10,757 nt of DNA. It comes from a virus. Its lineage: Duplodnaviria; Heunggongvirae; Uroviricota; Caudoviricetes. This document shows, one piece after another, positions 1,369 to 10,757 of the stretch (positions within the stretch are counted from its first letter, which is position 1; every line of letters begins with the position of its first letter). The notes beneath the pieces are model-generated. The model worked only from the letters and a program-made list of their open reading frames with translations. It had not been told where the DNA came from and did not search any database. The stretch spans positions 1-10,757 of IMG/VR virus record IMGVR_UViG_2693429677_000014; one strand, 5' to 3'. The position numbers were made by a program, and so were the translations under genes.

Positions 1369-1532
1369 ACGTAAATCAGGCAATTTATTTGTCGGATAAG
1401 CCTTTGCCAGTTCCGGGTATTCTTCAGCAGAAAAAGCGGCACCGTTGCATTTCAGCCAGCCTGTTGGCGGAGTGGCTGAAGGCCACGGAACAGGCACCCC
1501 AACCGGTAATGCAGAGCCTTCTCCCAAACCAA
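1369..1532. repeat. 164-bp perfect direct repeat, copy 2
   Basis: Identical to 230-393 (checked in 10-nt blocks). Confidence 0.9.
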
Positions 1533-1544
1533 CATTTATGAAAA
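1519..1544. promoter_or_regulatory. Second invertase crossover-type site (pin-proximal), same orientation as the site at 380-405
   Basis: TTCTCCCAAACC-AA-CATTTATGAAAA: left half and core identical to site 1; right half retains the TTT..TGA.AA pattern of hix/gix right halves; lies about 55 bp upstream of the divergent pin start. Confidence 0.45.
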
Positions 1545-1598
1545 TGCAGAAATAACGAGCAAATGGCATCATTCCTGCTTTTGTCAGGGGGCGCTACC

Positions 1599-1727
1599 AT
1601 GCTTATTGGCTATGTACGCGTATCAACAAATGACCAGAACACCGATCTACAACGTAATGCGTTGAGCTGTGCAGGATGCGAGCTGATTTTTGAAGACAAG
1701 ATAAGCGGTACAAAGTCCGAAACCTAG
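1599..1727 (+). pseudogene. pin: Serine DNA invertase (Pin/Hin/Gin family), 5' fragment only; truncated after about 40 codons
   Basis: Own translation: MLIGYVRVSTNDQNTDLQRNALSCAGCELIFEDKISGTKSET*, matching the conserved invertase N-terminus (catalytic Ser in YVRVSTNDQ); homology ends around codon 38-40, then TAG at 1725-1727. Confidence 0.75.
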
Positions 1728-1774
1728 GGCTGACACTGCTGTTCTTATTGCAAATTAAAGGATTTAATAGTGAG

Positions 1775-1802
1775 TAGCGGCCTTACTAATGTAAGGCCGC
1801 TA
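1775..1802. terminator. Hairpin between the convergent pin remnant and the GmrSD gene; possible bidirectional terminator
   Basis: Perfect 11-12 bp stem AGCGGCCTTAC / GTAAGGCCGCT with TAAT loop, 21 nt after the GmrSD stop; T-rich run (CATTTTATT) follows on the plus strand, no clear U-tract on the minus strand. Confidence 0.4.
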
Positions 1803-1822
1803 TAATCATTTTATTAATTGCA

Positions 1823-3712
1823 TTAATCGTGTTTTGGCCATACTTTCAATGCAATTTCCCCCAACTTTTTACCCCGCTCCAGGATTTCATCCTCATCCCA
1901 TTTATCCTTAACTATAAGTGGAATGTTCAGTCGTAGATTGGTGTGGACGATGAGAGCATCACGTTTTTTCAGAAATACAGCATTCTGAACAGAACGGTTT
2001 ACGCTAAGGTTAAGCAAAGTTAGATTTCCCAACGTAGTTATCGCTTGTTGCCGTTTCCTTACCAGTAGCTGTTCTGGGGTAAGATCGGTTCCAGACAGAA
2101 CAATTTGGTTCAATACCGTAGCATCTGAATTTGTCACCATATGACCATTTTCGAGAGGCCAACAGGAATACCAACTTTGAGGCATAAGATGATCGATATC
2201 GAGGTTAGAAAGATTTGGAACATCAGGCTTCTCTGTCTTCACTTGGCGACAAAGTTCTCTTTCAAGTTCCGTTAACATTGAGCGCATTTTCGGTGCGTCG
2301 AGCCTGCCAGGATAAAGTGGAGCATTGATGCAAGCGTTGAGAAATTCTGAGTCCCCAGGCCAACGTGAGGCTTCGCCATTTAAGCTATTGAGGATATTAC
2401 GTAACTCAACACTGGAAATTTCTGTTTTAGACAAGTGCCGCAATACATTCATAAATACATTGTTGTAATTCTTTGGCGTCAGGCCACATACGGCTCTTCG
2501 TACTACGTAGGAGACAAGATCATTATACATGGCTGCTTTCTCATCATCGGCGATGTTAGCTATCGAAATGAACAAAGCAAGCGGATAAAGTGTCGTCACA
2601 TCATAGGCTGCGATGCGATGTCCAAAGTGTGAGATGGGGGTTGTGCCAAAACCACCAACCAATTCTTTATATTGTGATGCATATTGTTTGAGGCGCTTTA
2701 CTTGCAGATCTGCTCGTTGTGAAGGCAAGTCCTTACTTACATAATCACGATACTCATTGTAAAGACGAGACAGATCGATTTCACGTTGCCTTTCTGATTG
2801 CAATGTTGCATGCACTAGCCACTCCATGCGTGGTTTATTAATACGACCACGACGTTGTCTTTCTGACCAGTACGTATCTTCAAAGATCTTCCACTCATTC
2901 TCATATAATTCAACAGCATTAATATTTTCATGTTCAGCGCACATAAAAATATAATTGCGAATAAGATCTGTGGCATGAAGTTCCGCACCTCTGCCATTTA
3001 ATGTTTCAAAAATTATTTGAGCGTCATCTTCAGCCTCGAGAAATATGCTTACTAGTTTCAGATCCGTCAAGACAGCCTCAATTAATGCTACAGCATTTTC
3101 TCGTGGTGAGTGATTTTCTATTTTAATCCACTTTATAAAGGCTTCAGTAAAAAAACATAATGCTTCTAGTGATGGCGGGTGATTAAAATGCTTACGCAAC
3201 GTACCATGCTGCGTGAAACTATCAGAGAATACATTCCGGATATCGTCAATATTTTCAACATTAAAACTTTGAATAAAATGAGTTTGATCCCGAAAAGTTG
3301 GCCACAGTTTGAAGCGCTCTACTTCTTTATTTCGCATTGTGTCTTCGTTTGAGTTTTTCAGGCAAGACGAAATGAGAGGCTCTAAGTTGGAAAGATCTGT
3401 TGCACGTAATGCTAATCGGATGGATGCCAGAACATATTGAAGAGTGGTCAATCGTTGCTGACCATCAATAATATGTATGGAATCTACACCGAATAATCCT
3501 TTTTTTGGTTGAGGTTCCAGTACAACTGCACCAAGGAAATGGGGAGTTGGTTTTGTACCCGAGAGCCGGGATTGTGCTTTCTCTAGGATATCCTCCAGTA
3601 GAGCTGACCATTGGTTTCGCTGAGTCCATACATAGGCACGTTGATAGAATGGAACACAGTATTGTCGGCGGTCTTGAAAAAGTTGTTGGACAGTTAGCGT
3701 CTCGGATTTCAT
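1823..3712 (-). CDS. GmrSD-family putative type IV (modification-dependent) restriction endonuclease: N-terminal DUF262 (ParB-like, DGQQR motif) + C-terminal DUF1524 (HNH/His-Me finger)
   Basis: ORF track 1823..3772 (649 aa). Motifs YCVPFYQRAYVW and IIDGQQRLTTL (DUF262); C-terminal DIDHLMPQSW ... LGNLTLLNLSVNRS (DUF1524). Start chosen at ATG 3712 (MKSETLTV..., AGG 7 nt upstream); the upstream ATG at 3772 has no Shine-Dalgarno and overlaps a TAAAAT -10-like hexamer. Confidence 0.8.
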   Translation of the reverse strand: MKSETLTVQQLFQDRRQYCVPFYQRAYVWTQRNQWSALLEDILEKAQSRLSGTKPTPHFLGAVVLEPQPKKGLFGVDSIHIIDGQQRLTTLQYVLASIRLALRATDLSNLEPLISSCLKNSNEDTMRNKEVERFKLWPTFRDQTHFIQSFNVENIDDIRNVFSDSFTQHGTLRKHFNHPPSLEALCFFTEAFIKWIKIENHSPRENAVALIEAVLTDLKLVSIFLEAEDDAQIIFETLNGRGAELHATDLIRNYIFMCAEHENINAVELYENEWKIFEDTYWSERQRRGRINKPRMEWLVHATLQSERQREIDLSRLYNEYRDYVSKDLPSQRADLQVKRLKQYASQYKELVGGFGTTPISHFGHRIAAYDVTTLYPLALFISIANIADDEKAAMYNDLVSYVVRRAVCGLTPKNYNNVFMNVLRHLSKTEISSVELRNILNSLNGEASRWPGDSEFLNACINAPLYPGRLDAPKMRSMLTELERELCRQVKTEKPDVPNLSNLDIDHLMPQSWYSCWPLENGHMVTNSDATVLNQIVLSGTDLTPEQLLVRKRQQAITTLGNLTLLNLSVNRSVQNAVFLKKRDALIVHTNLRLNIPLIVKDKWDEDEILERGKKLGEIALKVWPKHD

Positions 3713-4169
3713 GGTATACCTGTAAGCGACATTGTACAAAAGTGAGGAGTTAATCTGATTTAGAACAATCATTTTATGTTGCTATGATACAACGTATTTG
3801 TTACCGGTTAAGTAAAAAACGCGTCTGAACGCTGACGTTTTAGGGCTTTACTAGTTATTCTTTCTTATCTCTTCATCATCCCATCGGCATCCTGTCGAGG
3901 TTGTTGACTTGTTGTTATTTATTTTGTTTAGGCGCTGTTTAATTATTATTGATGGGACTGGTGGTGAGAGGTGATTGAAACCGCAGACAGGTCGTATGCA
4001 AGACGTGCTGCGGTTGGCTGATGCACTTTTGATAGTGCAAGTATTGAATGATTGCCAGTCACAGCGGATTGTACTTAGGTAATATGACGGTTCAAGGCGT
4101 TTAAACTGAAACCATCCACATATCAGTCTCTTCAAACATTTCCTAAATCGTTCGGCTTATCTGTTCTTT

Positions 4170-4605
4170 CTCACGTTTGCTGACGTCAGTGCTGATTGCC
4201 GGCAGTGTCATCATCGGTTTTACACGATACCCTTTGCGTTGAACGAGTCGTACTACTGTAACAACGCGTCGGTGAAGCTCCTCATCCCGACACAGGACAG
4301 TCGGGATATCATTGCAGTAGCAACGGGGAGTCTGGATGCAATATGGAAAGACGGACACCGATATCAGAAAGCCGGGGTAATGCTGGGGGACTTCTTCAGT
4401 CAGAGCATGCCCTAACCTATTCGACGATAACGCGCTGGGTCCTGGGAGCGAAAAGTTAATGAGCGTGCTGGAGCACCTCAACGCAAAAGACGGGAAGGAA
4501 ACACTCTGTTTCGCTGGGCAGGGCATTCAGCAGCAGTGGCAGATGAAACGCGAGATATTTTCGCACCGGTATACAACTAGATTTTCTGGCATTTTAGGTG
4601 GTTAG
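4170..4605 (+). pseudogene. umuC: umuC-like (Y-family translesion polymerase Pol V catalytic subunit) 3' remnant; frameshifted, 5' two-thirds missing
   Basis: Own translation: ...PFALNESYYCNNASVKLLIPTQDSRDIIAVATGSLDAIWKDGHRYQKAGVMLGDFFSQ then frame change, then FDDNALGPGSEKLMSVLEHLNAKDGKETLCFAGQGIQQQWQMKREIFSHRYTTR..., which parallels the remembered UmuC C-terminus (ASVKLLTPTQDSRDII ... FAGQGIQQQWQMKRAMLSPRYTTR). 17 nt where about 21 are expected between FFSQ and FDDNA. Confidence 0.65.
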
Positions 4606-4642
4606 ATAGATATTTATGCTCTACGCAATGAATATGAGAGAA

Positions 4643-5308
4643 TTAATTGTCTAAGCTGGTATAATATGAATAAAGGCTTTTTCCCATTATTTTCTCTAAA
4701 TCCTTTTTGTTTCTAAAGAAAATGTTTGAGATATGCTGATGATAATACTTTATAATGATTCTCATCAGCGCCGATACTACCTCATGAAGTTTTTTCACCA
4801 TTTTATGCTGTGTTGAATTACAATCTCCCTCCATAAGTGATATAAATGTTGATGTAACATTTAGGTTCGCTTGGGGGGAGGAGTGAACATAATAACAGGC
4901 GTTGATATAGACATTATGTAAATAAGACCAGCCTTCATCGACTTGTTGGGCTTTTAAGAAGTCAAAGTCTCTACGACGTACAGTTTGGTCAAAATCCCCA
5001 CCATTGTAGTTCTTATTGAGGCTTATTCTGGCCACATGCTCCACCATTGAGCGGAAGTTCAGTTGGAGATACCGTTCTCTTTTTTTTATAATGGCAATTA
5101 AGGAGTTTAAGGTATCATATATAAAACCTTTTATATAAGAAGAGTGATTTAGATTAGGATTGTGACTTAAAATTGTATTACAAAGACTTATTTGCCTAAA
5201 TATTGATACTGATTTGTTTATTTCATCAGTGGTTCTGAGGTGCTTTTGCACCTCCGCTCTAAAATAATTTACATCTCTTCCAATGTTGAAGGGATCCTGC
5301 GTGAGCAT
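4643..5308 (-). CDS. Hypothetical protein (221 aa), third gene of the AT-rich operon; no recognisable domain
   Basis: ORF track 4643..5308; start ATG overlaps the upstream stop as TAATG (translational coupling); AT-rich codon usage consistent with its neighbours. Confidence 0.6.
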   Translation of the reverse strand: MLTQDPFNIGRDVNYFRAEVQKHLRTTDEINKSVSIFRQISLCNTILSHNPNLNHSSYIKGFIYDTLNSLIAIIKKRERYLQLNFRSMVEHVARISLNKNYNGGDFDQTVRRRDFDFLKAQQVDEGWSYLHNVYINACYYVHSSPQANLNVTSTFISLMEGDCNSTQHKMVKKLHEVVSALMRIIIKYYHQHISNIFFRNKKDLEKIMGKSLYSYYTSLDN

Positions 5309-5706
5309 TATTCTTCTTCCTTTTTATTTGCATTAATCCAAATATTTAAATTCCTTATAGCATGCTTGCTTTTAGATGTGGATTTTTGGCTTGTTTTATT
5401 TGCATCATTAAAAATAATGTCTAATGTGTTAATGTTGTTTAAGAAATGCGTATAAGCCATCTTTATGTCATTCTCACTTAATTCATTAATATGTTTGCAA
5501 ATTTTAGCGCACATCAAAGTTCTTGACCGTACAGCATAATTCAAAAAAGATATTTTGAAGGTTTTGTTAATAAATTTACTAACATCAAAATTTGATCTAA
5601 AAACCTCTTTTGAAAGAATCAACATAATTACCAAGCCTAAGAAGTTTTCTTTGGTCATGGGCATATTGTTAGCTTTATTGAGCGCTTTAATTAATTGTTT
5701 ATTCAT
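5308..5706 (-). CDS. Hypothetical protein (132 aa), Lys/Asn-rich; second gene of the AT-rich operon
   Basis: ORF track 5308..5706; overlaps the ParA-like stop by 8 nt and the downstream start by 1 nt; no motif recognised. Confidence 0.55.
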   Translation of the reverse strand: MNKQLIKALNKANNMPMTKENFLGLVIMLILSKEVFRSNFDVSKFINKTFKISFLNYAVRSRTLMCAKICKHINELSENDIKMAYTHFLNNINTLDIIFNDANKTSQKSTSKSKHAIRNLNIWINANKKEEE

Positions 5707-6544
5707 TTGTGTTACCTTCCAAGTGAGCCACTCTGTTAATAAATTCGTTACAGATCTTTTCTATATCTTGGCGTGACTTTGAATAACAAGAAGGAATATT
5801 TCCTTGATAACCTACCATTAAATCACGCACGTAGGTTAATTGATTTTCAAAGAAATAAAAATTTGTAAATTGAGTATGGTTTTCGAATTGTTCTTTAATT
5901 TCCCTTGTTTTATTGGTCATTTCAGCATCAGTGTTTGTATAAATGTAACCGACTTGCTTGATTTCTTTCTCATGATGTGTGCGCATATTTCTTATAACGC
6001 TATTTAAACTGCTTGCTCCAAGCACCGAGTAGTGATCAATTTTAACCGGAGTAAGATAATAATCAGAAGCAAGGAGTGCGGTATCTGTAAATAATGAGAT
6101 TGTTGGGGGGCTATCGATAAAGATATAGTCGTAACTTTCTTTTAAGTCATTTTCGGTGATGAATTTACGCAACATTTTTATTCTAATACCCTCTTGGTTA
6201 GTATCAAAGATAATGTTTATATCACCTAAGATAATATCAAGATTGTCTGAAACTTTAGTAATGACCTGTTCTGGTGTCACTTTCTTTTCATCTTCCATTA
6301 ATGAATTTGGAAGCTCAAAAATCTTTCGAATGGTTTGATTATTAGGGCGAAGGGCAGTCATATATTCTTCTACTCGATCATAATGCCCCATTAAGGACTG
6401 AGTGGCATTAAATTGAGGATCAATATCGATAACTAGAACCTTGCGCCCCATATGGTTGGCTAAAAACTCAGCAATCCCAACGCATAAAGTTGTTTTACCA
6501 ACCCCACCTTTCATATTGATAAAACTAATTACTGGTGCAGTCAT
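5699..6544 (-). CDS. ParA/MinD/Soj-family P-loop ATPase (deviant Walker A)
   Basis: ORF track 5699..6544 (281 aa): MTAPVISFINMKGGVGKTTLCVGIAEFLANHMGRKVLVIDIDPQFNATQSL (KGGVGKTT deviant Walker A, DxDPQ) and YDYIFIDSPP (Walker B); AAGGA Shine-Dalgarno about 10 nt upstream of the ATG. Confidence 0.85.
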   Translation of the reverse strand: MTAPVISFINMKGGVGKTTLCVGIAEFLANHMGRKVLVIDIDPQFNATQSLMGHYDRVEEYMTALRPNNQTIRKIFELPNSLMEDEKKVTPEQVITKVSDNLDIILGDINIIFDTNQEGIRIKMLRKFITENDLKESYDYIFIDSPPTISLFTDTALLASDYYLTPVKIDHYSVLGASSLNSVIRNMRTHHEKEIKQVGYIYTNTDAEMTNKTREIKEQFENHTQFTNFYFFENQLTYVRDLMVGYQGNIPSCYSKSRQDIEKICNEFINRVAHLEGNTNE

Positions 6545-7291
6545 TTTTTCATCCTTAATTATGTAGTGTGAAATAGATTCACTATGCTGAAAGCATTTTT
6601 TAGCTTGATTTTTATACTGCGCGTTGACTTATCACCCTATCATATATGATTTTTAGGTGTTGCATAGACTGGTTTTATATCAGGGGCTTAGGTTGTATGT
6701 GGCGTCACAGAATCACTAATCATTGAACTTTGTACATGTAACGGTCCTGTTAAATAATATATAATGGGTTGTTAAGTTGGCTCTCTGATTCCTGATGCCC
6801 CAAGGACGCGCGTCATTGCGTGCCAGATTAACTTTTCGGCGGGCACAGTGCTATCGGCAATTATTTCCTCAGCCTCTTTCCCGCATAGGTCTTGGCGCAT
6901 CCATTTTCTTGCTATGAAATCTCCAGCCGGTCAGACTGAAAGTATAGAAGAGAATATGCGAATCGCTGTTCCGGTGTTTCTGGGAGAGCTTATGTCGGAG
7001 TAATTCCCCGGTAATTGAATCTCTTTTGCTCGCTCATAACAGACATTCACTACAGTTATGGTAGAAAGTATGTATGCTGATTGGGGAAAGTGTGAAAGAA
7101 AAGAAGACTGCTGCGCTGTTTGTCGTCACGTTTATCTTCATTGGCTATGCAAGTCATAATACAAGGTGGGACAAAACTGAGACACATAAGGCCTCACAAT
7201 GGCTTGCAAGGCTTTACATGTTTTGATGTGGTGGGACGTGTGAGCACAGTGTTGATGGGGTAATACTTTGAATTAGAAGCGGATTCTTATA

Positions 7292-7337
7292 ATTCGTAAT
7301 GCGAAGGTCGTAGGTTCGACTCCTATTATCGGCACCA
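7292..7337 (+). pseudogene. tRNA-Thr(CGU) 3' fragment (anticodon loop to CCA), thrW-like; integrase attachment-site duplicate, not a complete tRNA
   Basis: ATTCGTAATGCGAAGGTCGTAGGTTCGACTCCTATTATCGGCACCA: CGT anticodon, T-arm GTAGG-TTCGACT-CCTAT, acceptor 3' strand plus discriminator A plus CCA; no D-arm or 5' acceptor strand upstream. Ends 14 nt from the integrase stop. Confidence 0.7.
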
Positions 7338-7351
7338 TTTAAATCAATAAA

Positions 7352-8512
7352 TTACCTCACATTTAAGTAAACCACGTTCACCTCTTGTGCCGTATTTGTG
7401 CCATTGCGACTTATAATCGCATCGATTTTGCTCGCGTGCTCGGTGAGATGCCCGGCTGAAAGGTGGGCGTATCTTTGAACCATTTCGAGAGTTTCCCATC
7501 CTCCCATCTCTTTAAGTGCAAGAAGAGAGACACCGGACTGAACCAGCCAGCTTGCCCAGGTATGCCTCAGGTCATGGAAGCGGAAGTTGCTAATGCCCGC
7601 CCGCTTTAACGCTCCCTTCCATGCCTTGTTGCTGTCGGTTCTCATCTTCCTTACCGCTGCTGTTTTTGTTCCGTCGCTTCGGTAGGCAGGTCTGGTGTGG
7701 ACAAATACCCATCTCTTATGGAGCCCCTGCTGTTTTCTTAATATCTGGCATGCGGTTTCGTTAAGAGGAACTCCGATCGCATTGCCAGCTTTTGTTTCAT
7801 CAGGGTGCATCCATGCCATTTTCTTATCCAGATCGACCTGTGACCACTCAAGGTCTGTAACGTTGGAACGGCGAAGGCCTGTCGTGATTGCAAACATGAC
7901 CACAGGGAAGAAATGAGGAGCAATTTCTGCAAACAGGTGCTTCGATTCCTCCTCTGTAAGCCATCTGATTCGTCCATTCTTAACGCGTGGTGTTGATATT
8001 TTGGGCGCCCTGTCAAGCCATCCCCATTCAACAGCTATATTGAGAATAGCGCGAAGTATTGCCAGATGCCGCGTCTTCGTTCCTTTGCTTGCCAGCTTTG
8101 GTTTATACTCCGGCACTGGCTTGCCAAGCCGCAAACACCTGTCCCGGCTCATCTCCCAGTTCAGGCGATGGCGGCGGTTTTCCATCCCGTCTACCGCCTC
8201 CATTATTTTTTCTGTTGTTATGTTAGAGAGAATGGTTTCTCTGAAGTGCAACATCCAGAACGATATAATGCTCTTGTCATCATCAATGGACTTCTTATCC
8301 GATTTCTCACGCAGCCACCGTATGCAGGCTTCCTTGAATAGCTTTTTCGGTGATTCCCCGAGATTTTTTACTCTCCACGCTTCTGCTTTCAGACGATCGT
8401 GAAATTCTTGCGCTTGCCTTTTGTCCGATATTTTAAGTGAGCGTCTAACTCTTGATCCATCTGGCGCGACGAAATCGCAGTGCCACGTGCCACCGCGTAG
8501 TTTGATTGACAT
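7352..8512 (-). CDS. int: Tyrosine site-specific integrase, lambdoid IntF/IntD (HK620/Sf6/SfV) family
   Basis: ORF track 7352..8512 (386 aa); AGGAGG 8 nt upstream of the ATG; catalytic boxes RFHDLRHTWASW and VQRYAHL; overall resemblance to remembered IntD/IntF-type integrases; 3' end abuts the tRNA-Thr fragment. Confidence 0.9.
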   Translation of the reverse strand: MSIKLRGGTWHCDFVAPDGSRVRRSLKISDKRQAQEFHDRLKAEAWRVKNLGESPKKLFKEACIRWLREKSDKKSIDDDKSIISFWMLHFRETILSNITTEKIMEAVDGMENRRHRLNWEMSRDRCLRLGKPVPEYKPKLASKGTKTRHLAILRAILNIAVEWGWLDRAPKISTPRVKNGRIRWLTEEESKHLFAEIAPHFFPVVMFAITTGLRRSNVTDLEWSQVDLDKKMAWMHPDETKAGNAIGVPLNETACQILRKQQGLHKRWVFVHTRPAYRSDGTKTAAVRKMRTDSNKAWKGALKRAGISNFRFHDLRHTWASWLVQSGVSLLALKEMGGWETLEMVQRYAHLSAGHLTEHASKIDAIISRNGTNTAQEVNVVYLNVR

Positions 8513-8687
8513 GCTTTAACCTCCTGCACATCAACCGCATTCACCGCGCTATTGTGTCTTACAGACTTAAGCGCCGCAATGCAGTCTGACTTGCAAATGC
8601 GATATGGGCTTTTAGGTTTATCTGGATTTATCTTTGCGGCCTGAAGTCGTCCACTTCGTATCCACTGCGTGATAGTGTCTTTGTCTA
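8389..8687 (-). pseudogene. Excisionase-family (AlpA/Xis-like) HTH DNA-binding protein, 5' end cut by IS911; reading frame overlaps the integrase start
   Basis: Minus-strand translation from the IS911 boundary: ...IDKDTITQWIRSGRLQAAKINPDKPKSPYRICKSDCIAALKS..., fitting the excisionase-family winged-helix pattern; no start codon in the flank, first helix missing; frame runs through the integrase RBS and ATG to a stop at 8389. Confidence 0.5.
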
Positions 8688-8759
8688 TGTAGTGGCACAC
8701 TGAATTTGGCCACCTGAACAGAGGTGATATGCTCACCTCAGAACAACACAGGTGCTCCA

Positions 8760-9930
<1,171 letters not shown>

Positions 9931-9968
9931 CCACTACAAATTGGCGACGTTAGCGTTACAGATATTAA

Positions 9969-10757
<789 letters not shown>

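Follow-up and report, generated by a model that had tools for sequence, protein, structure and literature searches.

The window, i.e., the whole stretch of 10,757 nt that was analysed, contains part of a tRNA gene, 46 nt in length, at positions 7292–7337 on the plus strand (ATTCGTAATGCGAAGGTCGTAGGTTCGACTCCTATTATCGGCACCA). This fragment matches exactly the 3' 46 nt of thrW, the gene for tRNA-Thr(CGU), and corresponds to thrW positions 31–76, from the anticodon loop through CCA. Comparison with the host thrW gave 46 identical positions out of 46 in K-12 and in five other genomes. In K-12 the same 46 nt end the annotated thrW gene, and a second copy, known as ptwF, is found at the right end of the cryptic prophage CP4-6. 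Within the window the 46-mer had a single match, even when 3 mismatches were allowed (0 expected, as estimated from 200 dinucleotide shuffles); a second or degenerate att copy was not detected in scans of the window permitting up to 14 mismatches, nor in scans with the last 20–25 nt.

ARAGORN reported 0 tRNA genes in the window, and Rfam gave no tRNA at E ≤ 1 across its whole length. When the region 7200–7420 was searched with the tRNA model under lax conditions, a weak match of 14.9 bits (gathering score 29) was obtained, in which the T arm alone was aligned and an insertion of 31 nt stood in place of the anticodon arm. The fold of 7262–7340 was no better than that of shuffled sequence (z = 0.06), and the fragment lacks the acceptor stem and D arm which a functional tRNA gene, with its complete cloverleaf, would have. 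Otherwise the Rfam scan of the whole window yielded only a sub-threshold match to the archaeal C/D snoRNA sR41 at 2477–2551 on the minus strand (26 bits, gathering score 54); it is located inside the GmrSD coding region and we take it as a chance match. The first-pass annotation had described a 46-nt 3' half of a thrW-like tRNA-Thr(CGU), preceded by sequence which cannot form a 5' half, with the stop codon of an integrase gene 14 nt away. The stop codon, TAA, lies at 7352–7354, 14 nt past CCA, and this description of fragment and integrase was right in every detail.

The integrase gene occupies 7352–8512 on the minus strand and is intact; its product of 386 aa is a tyrosine integrase (PF00589, Phage_integrase, 3e-34), and the motifs RRS, HDLRH and RYAH were found in the translation. 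It is of the SfX/mEp213/HK542 type: the DNA is 98.3–98.5% identical to that of mEp213, HK542 and SfX (98.3% for SfX), and the protein matches mEp213 Int in 377 of 387 aligned positions, with the stop counted. The same protein, without any difference, is encoded by E. coli 2015C-4136CT1, and only 55% protein identity is shared with the Int of SfII. An excisionase gene, xis, follows at 8389–8687 on the minus strand. It is cut at the 5' end, since its alignment to mEp213 Xis begins at residue 17 and the first 16 codons are replaced by IS sequence; the homology to phages ends at 8687. We take the lost codons to include the first HTH helix, so that the excisionase is probably dead.

The insertion sequence (8688–9938, plus strand) is an IS911-like member of the IS3 family, 1251 bp in length, with the Pfam domains HTH_Tnp_1 and rve, and is 90% identical to IS911 of Sf6 and K-12. 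Its 3-bp flanks, compared as potential target-site duplications, are unequal in the window (CTA and AAT), and the flanks differ in both comparator loci, too. Beyond it lies a pseudogene for the C-terminal part of a P4-like integrase (9940–10667, plus strand; PF00589 on 10143–10484). The junction of this pseudogene with the IS is 99.5% identical to the corresponding junction beside the EspC island in 2015C-4136CT1, where the P4-like pseudogene is 2.3 Mb away from thrW. The join of cut xis, IS and pseudogene was found in 0 of 5426 complete E. coli genomes, and it reflects either rearrangement by the IS or a join made at a repeat in the assembly. The pseudogene lies outside the att system and shows that the right element is truncated there: phage homology stops at the IS and an unrelated pseudogene follows, so the right element is a stub of intact int and cut xis. 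The prediction that the integrase-side element extends rightwards was borne out, int being followed by xis, with the genes on the left belonging to a different element.

Exactly this Int protein was found in 725 blocks of the assembly collection. The orphan SfX-type Int is still intact, next to a hybrid attP-like site, despite the loss of its excisionase and of the remainder of its phage. It is quite improbable that it has been kept for a function, e.g., as a resident helper which captures or rearranges incoming thrW-targeting elements or affects how the upstream prophage excises; its conservation is accounted for just as well if the remnant is recent and was inherited clonally.

The SfII-like element and its cargo

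The cargo genes left of the fragment were assigned by transfer of the RefSeq annotation from strain 4012, with Pfam and PADLOC results added. The cargo block of the left prophage (1519–7166) is contiguous across the matched complete E. coli genomes. It comprises a truncated pin invertase gene (pin', 1599–1721), the gene for GmrSD (DUF262; 1823–3772, minus strand), which PADLOC assigned to mREase_IV with 1437 bits, dinI' (4143–4229), umuC' (DUF4113; 4224–4605), two ORFs without assigned function (4643–5308 and 5308–5706, both on the minus strand), the gene for a ParA-family ATPase (5699–6544, minus strand) and yedK' (6772–6912). Extended to position 7338, this block of 5.8 kb was contiguous, with 99.3–99.8% identity, in all complete E. 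coli genomes among the matches listed. No match of the cargo genes was found in deposited phage genomes, and just the two ends of the block match phage records.

The relation to a known phage type became apparent from strain 4012. There, proB and proA are followed by intact thrW, 14 nt, an int which is 99.7% identical to SfII Int, and xis; next come lambdoid early genes, an HK97-type head, a contractile tail and truncated pin. The prophage ends with DUF262/GmrSD, dinI', umuC', the two hypothetical genes, ParA and yedK', and then the 46-nt fragment. Over its structural region of 13 kb, identities of 97.8% with SfII, 97.7% with SfI and 97.5% with SfV were obtained, and the prophage is bounded by two att copies only, with none inside. 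SfII has an acyltransferase gene and gtrA/B/II in the slot which separates its tail-fibre genes from attP; in the window the gtr slot contains instead the GmrSD type IV restriction enzyme and the ParA operon. The left element is an SfII-like myovirus prophage, its cargo filling the gtr slot of SfII. In the first-pass annotation, GmrSD, umuC' and ParA had been assigned to different acquisitions, stacked at this hotspot. This did not hold: they form a single block with 99.3–99.8% identity and without att copies in its interior, and are cargo of one prophage, not separate islands.

Three of the gene remnants, dinI' and umuC' (4143–4605) and yedK' (for an SOS response-associated peptidase), are SOS-related and were kept as pseudogenes across many genomes. 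They show a mosaic history of the cargo block, and their conservation suggests an older plasmid- or phage-derived fragment which was fixed inside it.

The ParA gene and the two ORFs without assigned function form an overlapping operon on the minus strand, next to GmrSD in the cargo slot. For these two ORFs, matches were obtained neither with Pfam nor with NCBIfam or PADLOC. The operon could be an uncharacterised defence or partition-like module.

At the tail-fibre end, a direct repeat of 169 nt (99% identical; 230–398 and 1369–1537) flanks a segment of 970 nt (399–1368), which is inverted relative to strain 4012. Through the inversion, the minus strand now carries a tail-collar ORF and a gene of the Mu gp48-like (YmfQ) type. 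Since this end is rearranged, the left prophage may be defective or scrambled.

The att core and its arms

The 46 nt at 7292–7337 are an exact match not only to thrW and ptwF, but also to the attP cores of mEp213, SfX and SfII, in all of which they adjoin int. In the SfII genome they are situated between gtrA and int. In mEp213 the region is annotated as a prophage attachment site (48 nt), "similar to thrW tRNA and ptwF", and integrase and excisionase genes come after the core in the same order and spacing as in the window. The phage matches obtained by megablast of the window against phage genomes all start exactly at 7292 and run to 8687; they comprise mEp213, mEp043, HK542, HK446, mEpX2, HK75, ECP1 and an int-xis fragment of SfX, with identities of 98.1–98.5%. 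For the serotype-converting Shigella phages SfI, SfIV and SfV, a 46-bp attP and integration into thrW were described, and Int and Xis of SfII were reported to be conserved with those of SfI (PMC3851460). Since the exact core is present in mEp213, SfX and SfII and an attP of 46 bp is on record, the fragment is the known common att core of thrW-targeting phages (SfI/SfII/SfIV/SfV, SfX, mEp213, HK542), and as such the crossover region for tyrosine integrases. Identity to thrW, the position beside int in the attP sites of phages and an adjacent tyrosine recombinase gene are found here together.

The sequence to the left of the core, about 125 nt (7167–7291, plus strand), is of the kind flanking attP in SfII and represents the P arm of the left SfII-type prophage, i.e., the phage-side flank of its attR. 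Homology to SfII left of the core begins near 7167, and the 80 nt left of 7292 show 4 differences (95% identity) from the SfII attP flank beside gtrA. Strain 4012 has the same left arm at its attR, and so have the tandem junctions of strain 2017.15.02CC and of two other loci (L013 and L022). To the right of the core, the spacer of 14 nt (7338–7351, plus strand) is the start of the P' arm of the right SfX-type element, which presumably continues into the 3' end of int. This spacer is identical to the sequence past intact thrW in 2015C-4136CT1 and in loci L015–L020, and the distance of 14 nt between int stop codon and CCA is the same in L006 and L015–L020. A search for arm-type binding repeats of the integrase in 6900–7460 gave just short two-copy matches without clear meaning.

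With a left arm of the SfII type and a right side of the SfX/mEp213 type, the site is a hybrid, in which the common core joins the P arm of one phage type to the P' arm, with int, of the other. The middle att copy of a tandem array is built in this way, its core lying between the P arm from the upstream phage and, from the downstream phage, the P' arm and int. The site is attR of the left prophage and attL of the right one.

Comparator genomes and order of integration

A look-up of the exact Int protein yielded ten different contexts. In L015–L020 the order is int, 14 nt, complete tRNA-Thr (confirmed by ARAGORN in L015 and L016) and proA; identity to the window extends over 63 nt from the int stop codon and breaks exactly at 7292. 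In 2015C-4136CT1, int adjoins intact thrW, the homology to the window breaks again exactly at 7292, and in the other direction an identity of 99.7% continues through xis' and the IS to 9940. These loci are empty sites for the left prophage. Occupied and empty states diverge exactly at the boundary of the core. In the genomes with the left block, homology ends at 7335–7359, or at 7406 where a remnant of the int 3' end follows. Comparison with empty-site genomes had been proposed as a check by the first-pass annotation, and the identical int behind intact thrW, with the break exactly at 7292, supports its view of the fragment as an att duplicate which belongs to an integrase system targeting thrW and lies at the boundary of an element, as do the matches of the core. 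Its further specification, the integrase-proximal duplicate of one island, was correct as far as the duplicate is concerned, but a single SfX-type prophage has an intact thrW in that place (L006, L015–L020). A half tRNA beside int arises only if a second element entered between the 5' half of thrW and the core; the site is thus shared.

Other loci carry different elements beside this int. In L013 and L022 the same half tRNA with the same SfII-type arm stands between int and a lambdoid prophage which has nleB and nleF among its genes. L014 was entered by an element whose integrase (444 aa) is of the DUF6538 kind, and only 19 nt of the thrW 3' end are left there beside int (11159–11194), and L021 has a P4-like satellite beside int with a degenerate copy of about 17 nt (11159–11180). 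From these short copies it follows that several integrase families with different core lengths share thrW. Whole prophages in tandem were found in 2017.15.02CC, in the order thrW, lambda-like prophage, 46 nt, SfX-type int with a whole P22-like prophage, 46 nt; three direct copies of the 46 nt bound the two prophages, of which the middle one lies in a junction with 97.6% identity to the window at 7025–8687. In the complete E. coli genomes, a 286-nt query of arm, core and arm was covered by at least 80% in 490 of 5426. The exact junction of 82 nt had 0 matches in species-representative genomes and 0 in JGI metagenomes, and the maximum coverage of the window by any complete E. coli genome was 58%.

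In L015, an int stub is located between thrW and a second 46-nt copy 2.7 kb away (8385–8430 and 11176–11221), beyond which genes of the yagU side follow. This minimal att-bounded remnant shows a position at which an SfX-type element can end on its right.

As is established for tyrosine-integrase phages, an attP consisting of P arm, core and P' arm recombines with attB, here the thrW 3' end. The phage's own 46 nt thereby restore thrW, at attL, and the chromosomal 46 nt are displaced as a half tRNA to the opposite end of the prophage, at attR. We consider it very probable that two prophages integrated in this manner, one behind the other, meet at the half tRNA of the window, and that an SfX-type phage (B) came first and decayed, and an SfII-like phage (A) came second. 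In a first step, phage B would integrate at thrW and decay to int and cut xis. In a second step, attP of phage A would recombine with the rebuilt thrW next to B, which could be entered because it again offers a complete core. The product would be a hybrid site, with A's P arm on one side of the core and B's P' arm on the other; in general, at the junction between two such prophages the newcomer contributes its P arm, and the resident its P' arm and int. Most likely, the array is arranged as proA-thrW, SfII-like prophage A, 46-nt core, and int with truncated xis of prophage B. Of prophage A, the window covers the tail-fibre end and the cargo; we infer that intact thrW and an SfII-type int are present upstream of the window in the source genome. 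Also, the site may still be able to recombine. When an SfX lysogen was infected with SfI, the latter integrated at the attL of SfX, so that the two prophages stood in tandem at thrW, separated by an att site, which is precisely the layout considered here (PMC3306764).

The arrival of B before A is most likely, an order which is argued from parsimony only. The final structure would be identical if A had been resident first and B had entered its attR and decayed later; the core at attR should hold all that attB offers to a core-binding integrase, and tandem arrays at thrW are common, considering the 490 genomes mentioned above. Nevertheless, this sequence of events is unlikely, since 2015C-4136CT1 possesses the B stub, cut by the IS at the same base, behind intact thrW and without A, and since the identical Int occurs with quite different elements in A's place (L013, L014, L021). 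A precise excision of A after the IS hit, and then new arrivals, would have to be assumed. Moreover, in the laboratory it was attL of resident SfX which SfI entered (PMC3306764).

Arm, core and arm in succession formally have the layout of an attP, and vegetative phage maps run from tail fibres through cargo and attP to int and xis. One match was located on a plasmid-type record of 64 kb (H156). That the site is an actual attP, carried by a phage in its free or circular form or by a plasmid-like element, and not a chromosomal junction, is very improbable and was rejected. The arms belong to different integrase families, the SfX-type int being 55% identical to that which goes with the SfII-type arm, and the int side is a stub which is cut by the IS after 1.3 kb and followed by a pseudogene of a chromosomal island. 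Close relatives of either half are all chromosomal, at proA-thrW. Equally rejected, and hardly credible, is a decayed duplicate tRNA gene, i.e., a 5'-deleted pseudogene formed without site-specific recombination, for which the incomplete tRNA is the sole support, as the 5' end coincides to the base with the attP core boundary in independent phages and genomes, the fragment is free of mutations and the integrase gene is found at the canonical distance of 14 nt.

The result has mainly a value for annotation: the site fixes to the base where an SfII-like prophage stops on its right and where an SfX-type remnant starts on its left. It also identifies the ParA operon and the gene of the type IV restriction enzyme GmrSD as phage cargo, located in the slot which Shigella phages use for their serotype-converting genes. 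thrW appears as a landing site which is reused repeatedly, where newcomers enter beside the rebuilt tRNA gene and older remnants are pushed downstream. Both site and tandem arrangement have been described already; the case is ordinary, with nothing new, and no open question is touched by it.

Relation to known systems at thrW

The attP regions of the lambdoid phages mEp213, mEp043, HK542, HK446 and mEpX2 and of SfX are collinear with the right side of the window in core, spacer, int and xis (98.1–98.5% identity), whereas their arm on the tail-fibre side is unrelated to 7167–7291. The reverse applies to attP of SfII (and of SfI, SfIV and SfV), which has the same core, the same P arm on the cargo side and a cargo slot before attP, but its own int past the core, with 55% protein identity to the int of the window.

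In K-12, the identical 46 nt of ptwF are in direct orientation with thrW and end the inserted element CP4-6; the identity to thrW reaches 3 nt further in the 5' direction than in the window. An analogy to intF-ptwF had been drawn in the first-pass annotation. It is valid for the core, but not for side, type, orientation and spacing of the integrase. IntF has 466 aa, and its gene is located inside CP4-6, on the thrW-proximal side of ptwF, with the start codon 112 nt away; the int of the window encodes a 386-aa protein of the SfX type and is found distally, 14 nt separating its stop codon from CCA. The geometry is thus opposite, and an intF-type integrase inside the element, as in the intF-ptwF arrangement of CP4-6, was not found in the window. 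The 68 nt past ptwF (K-12, 297255–297322; L005, 37256–37323) are 90% identical to 7338–7406 of the window. They are left over from an SfX-type int, whose 3' end they represent, and therefore K-12, too, once had such a phage downstream of ptwF. The same remnant probably explains why matches of the left block reach 7406 in many genomes.

A close counterpart in arrangement, already described, is the SfI-SfX tandem of S. flexneri serotype 1d (PMC3306764). Target (thrW) and 46-nt core are the same, and as in the window a myovirus of the SfI/SfII type is upstream and an SfX-type int directly past the middle att. The downstream prophage of the window differs in being a stub only, consisting of int and IS-cut xis, and the upstream prophage carries GmrSD, ParA and gene remnants, not the gtr O-antigen genes. 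The host is apparently E. coli, not Shigella.
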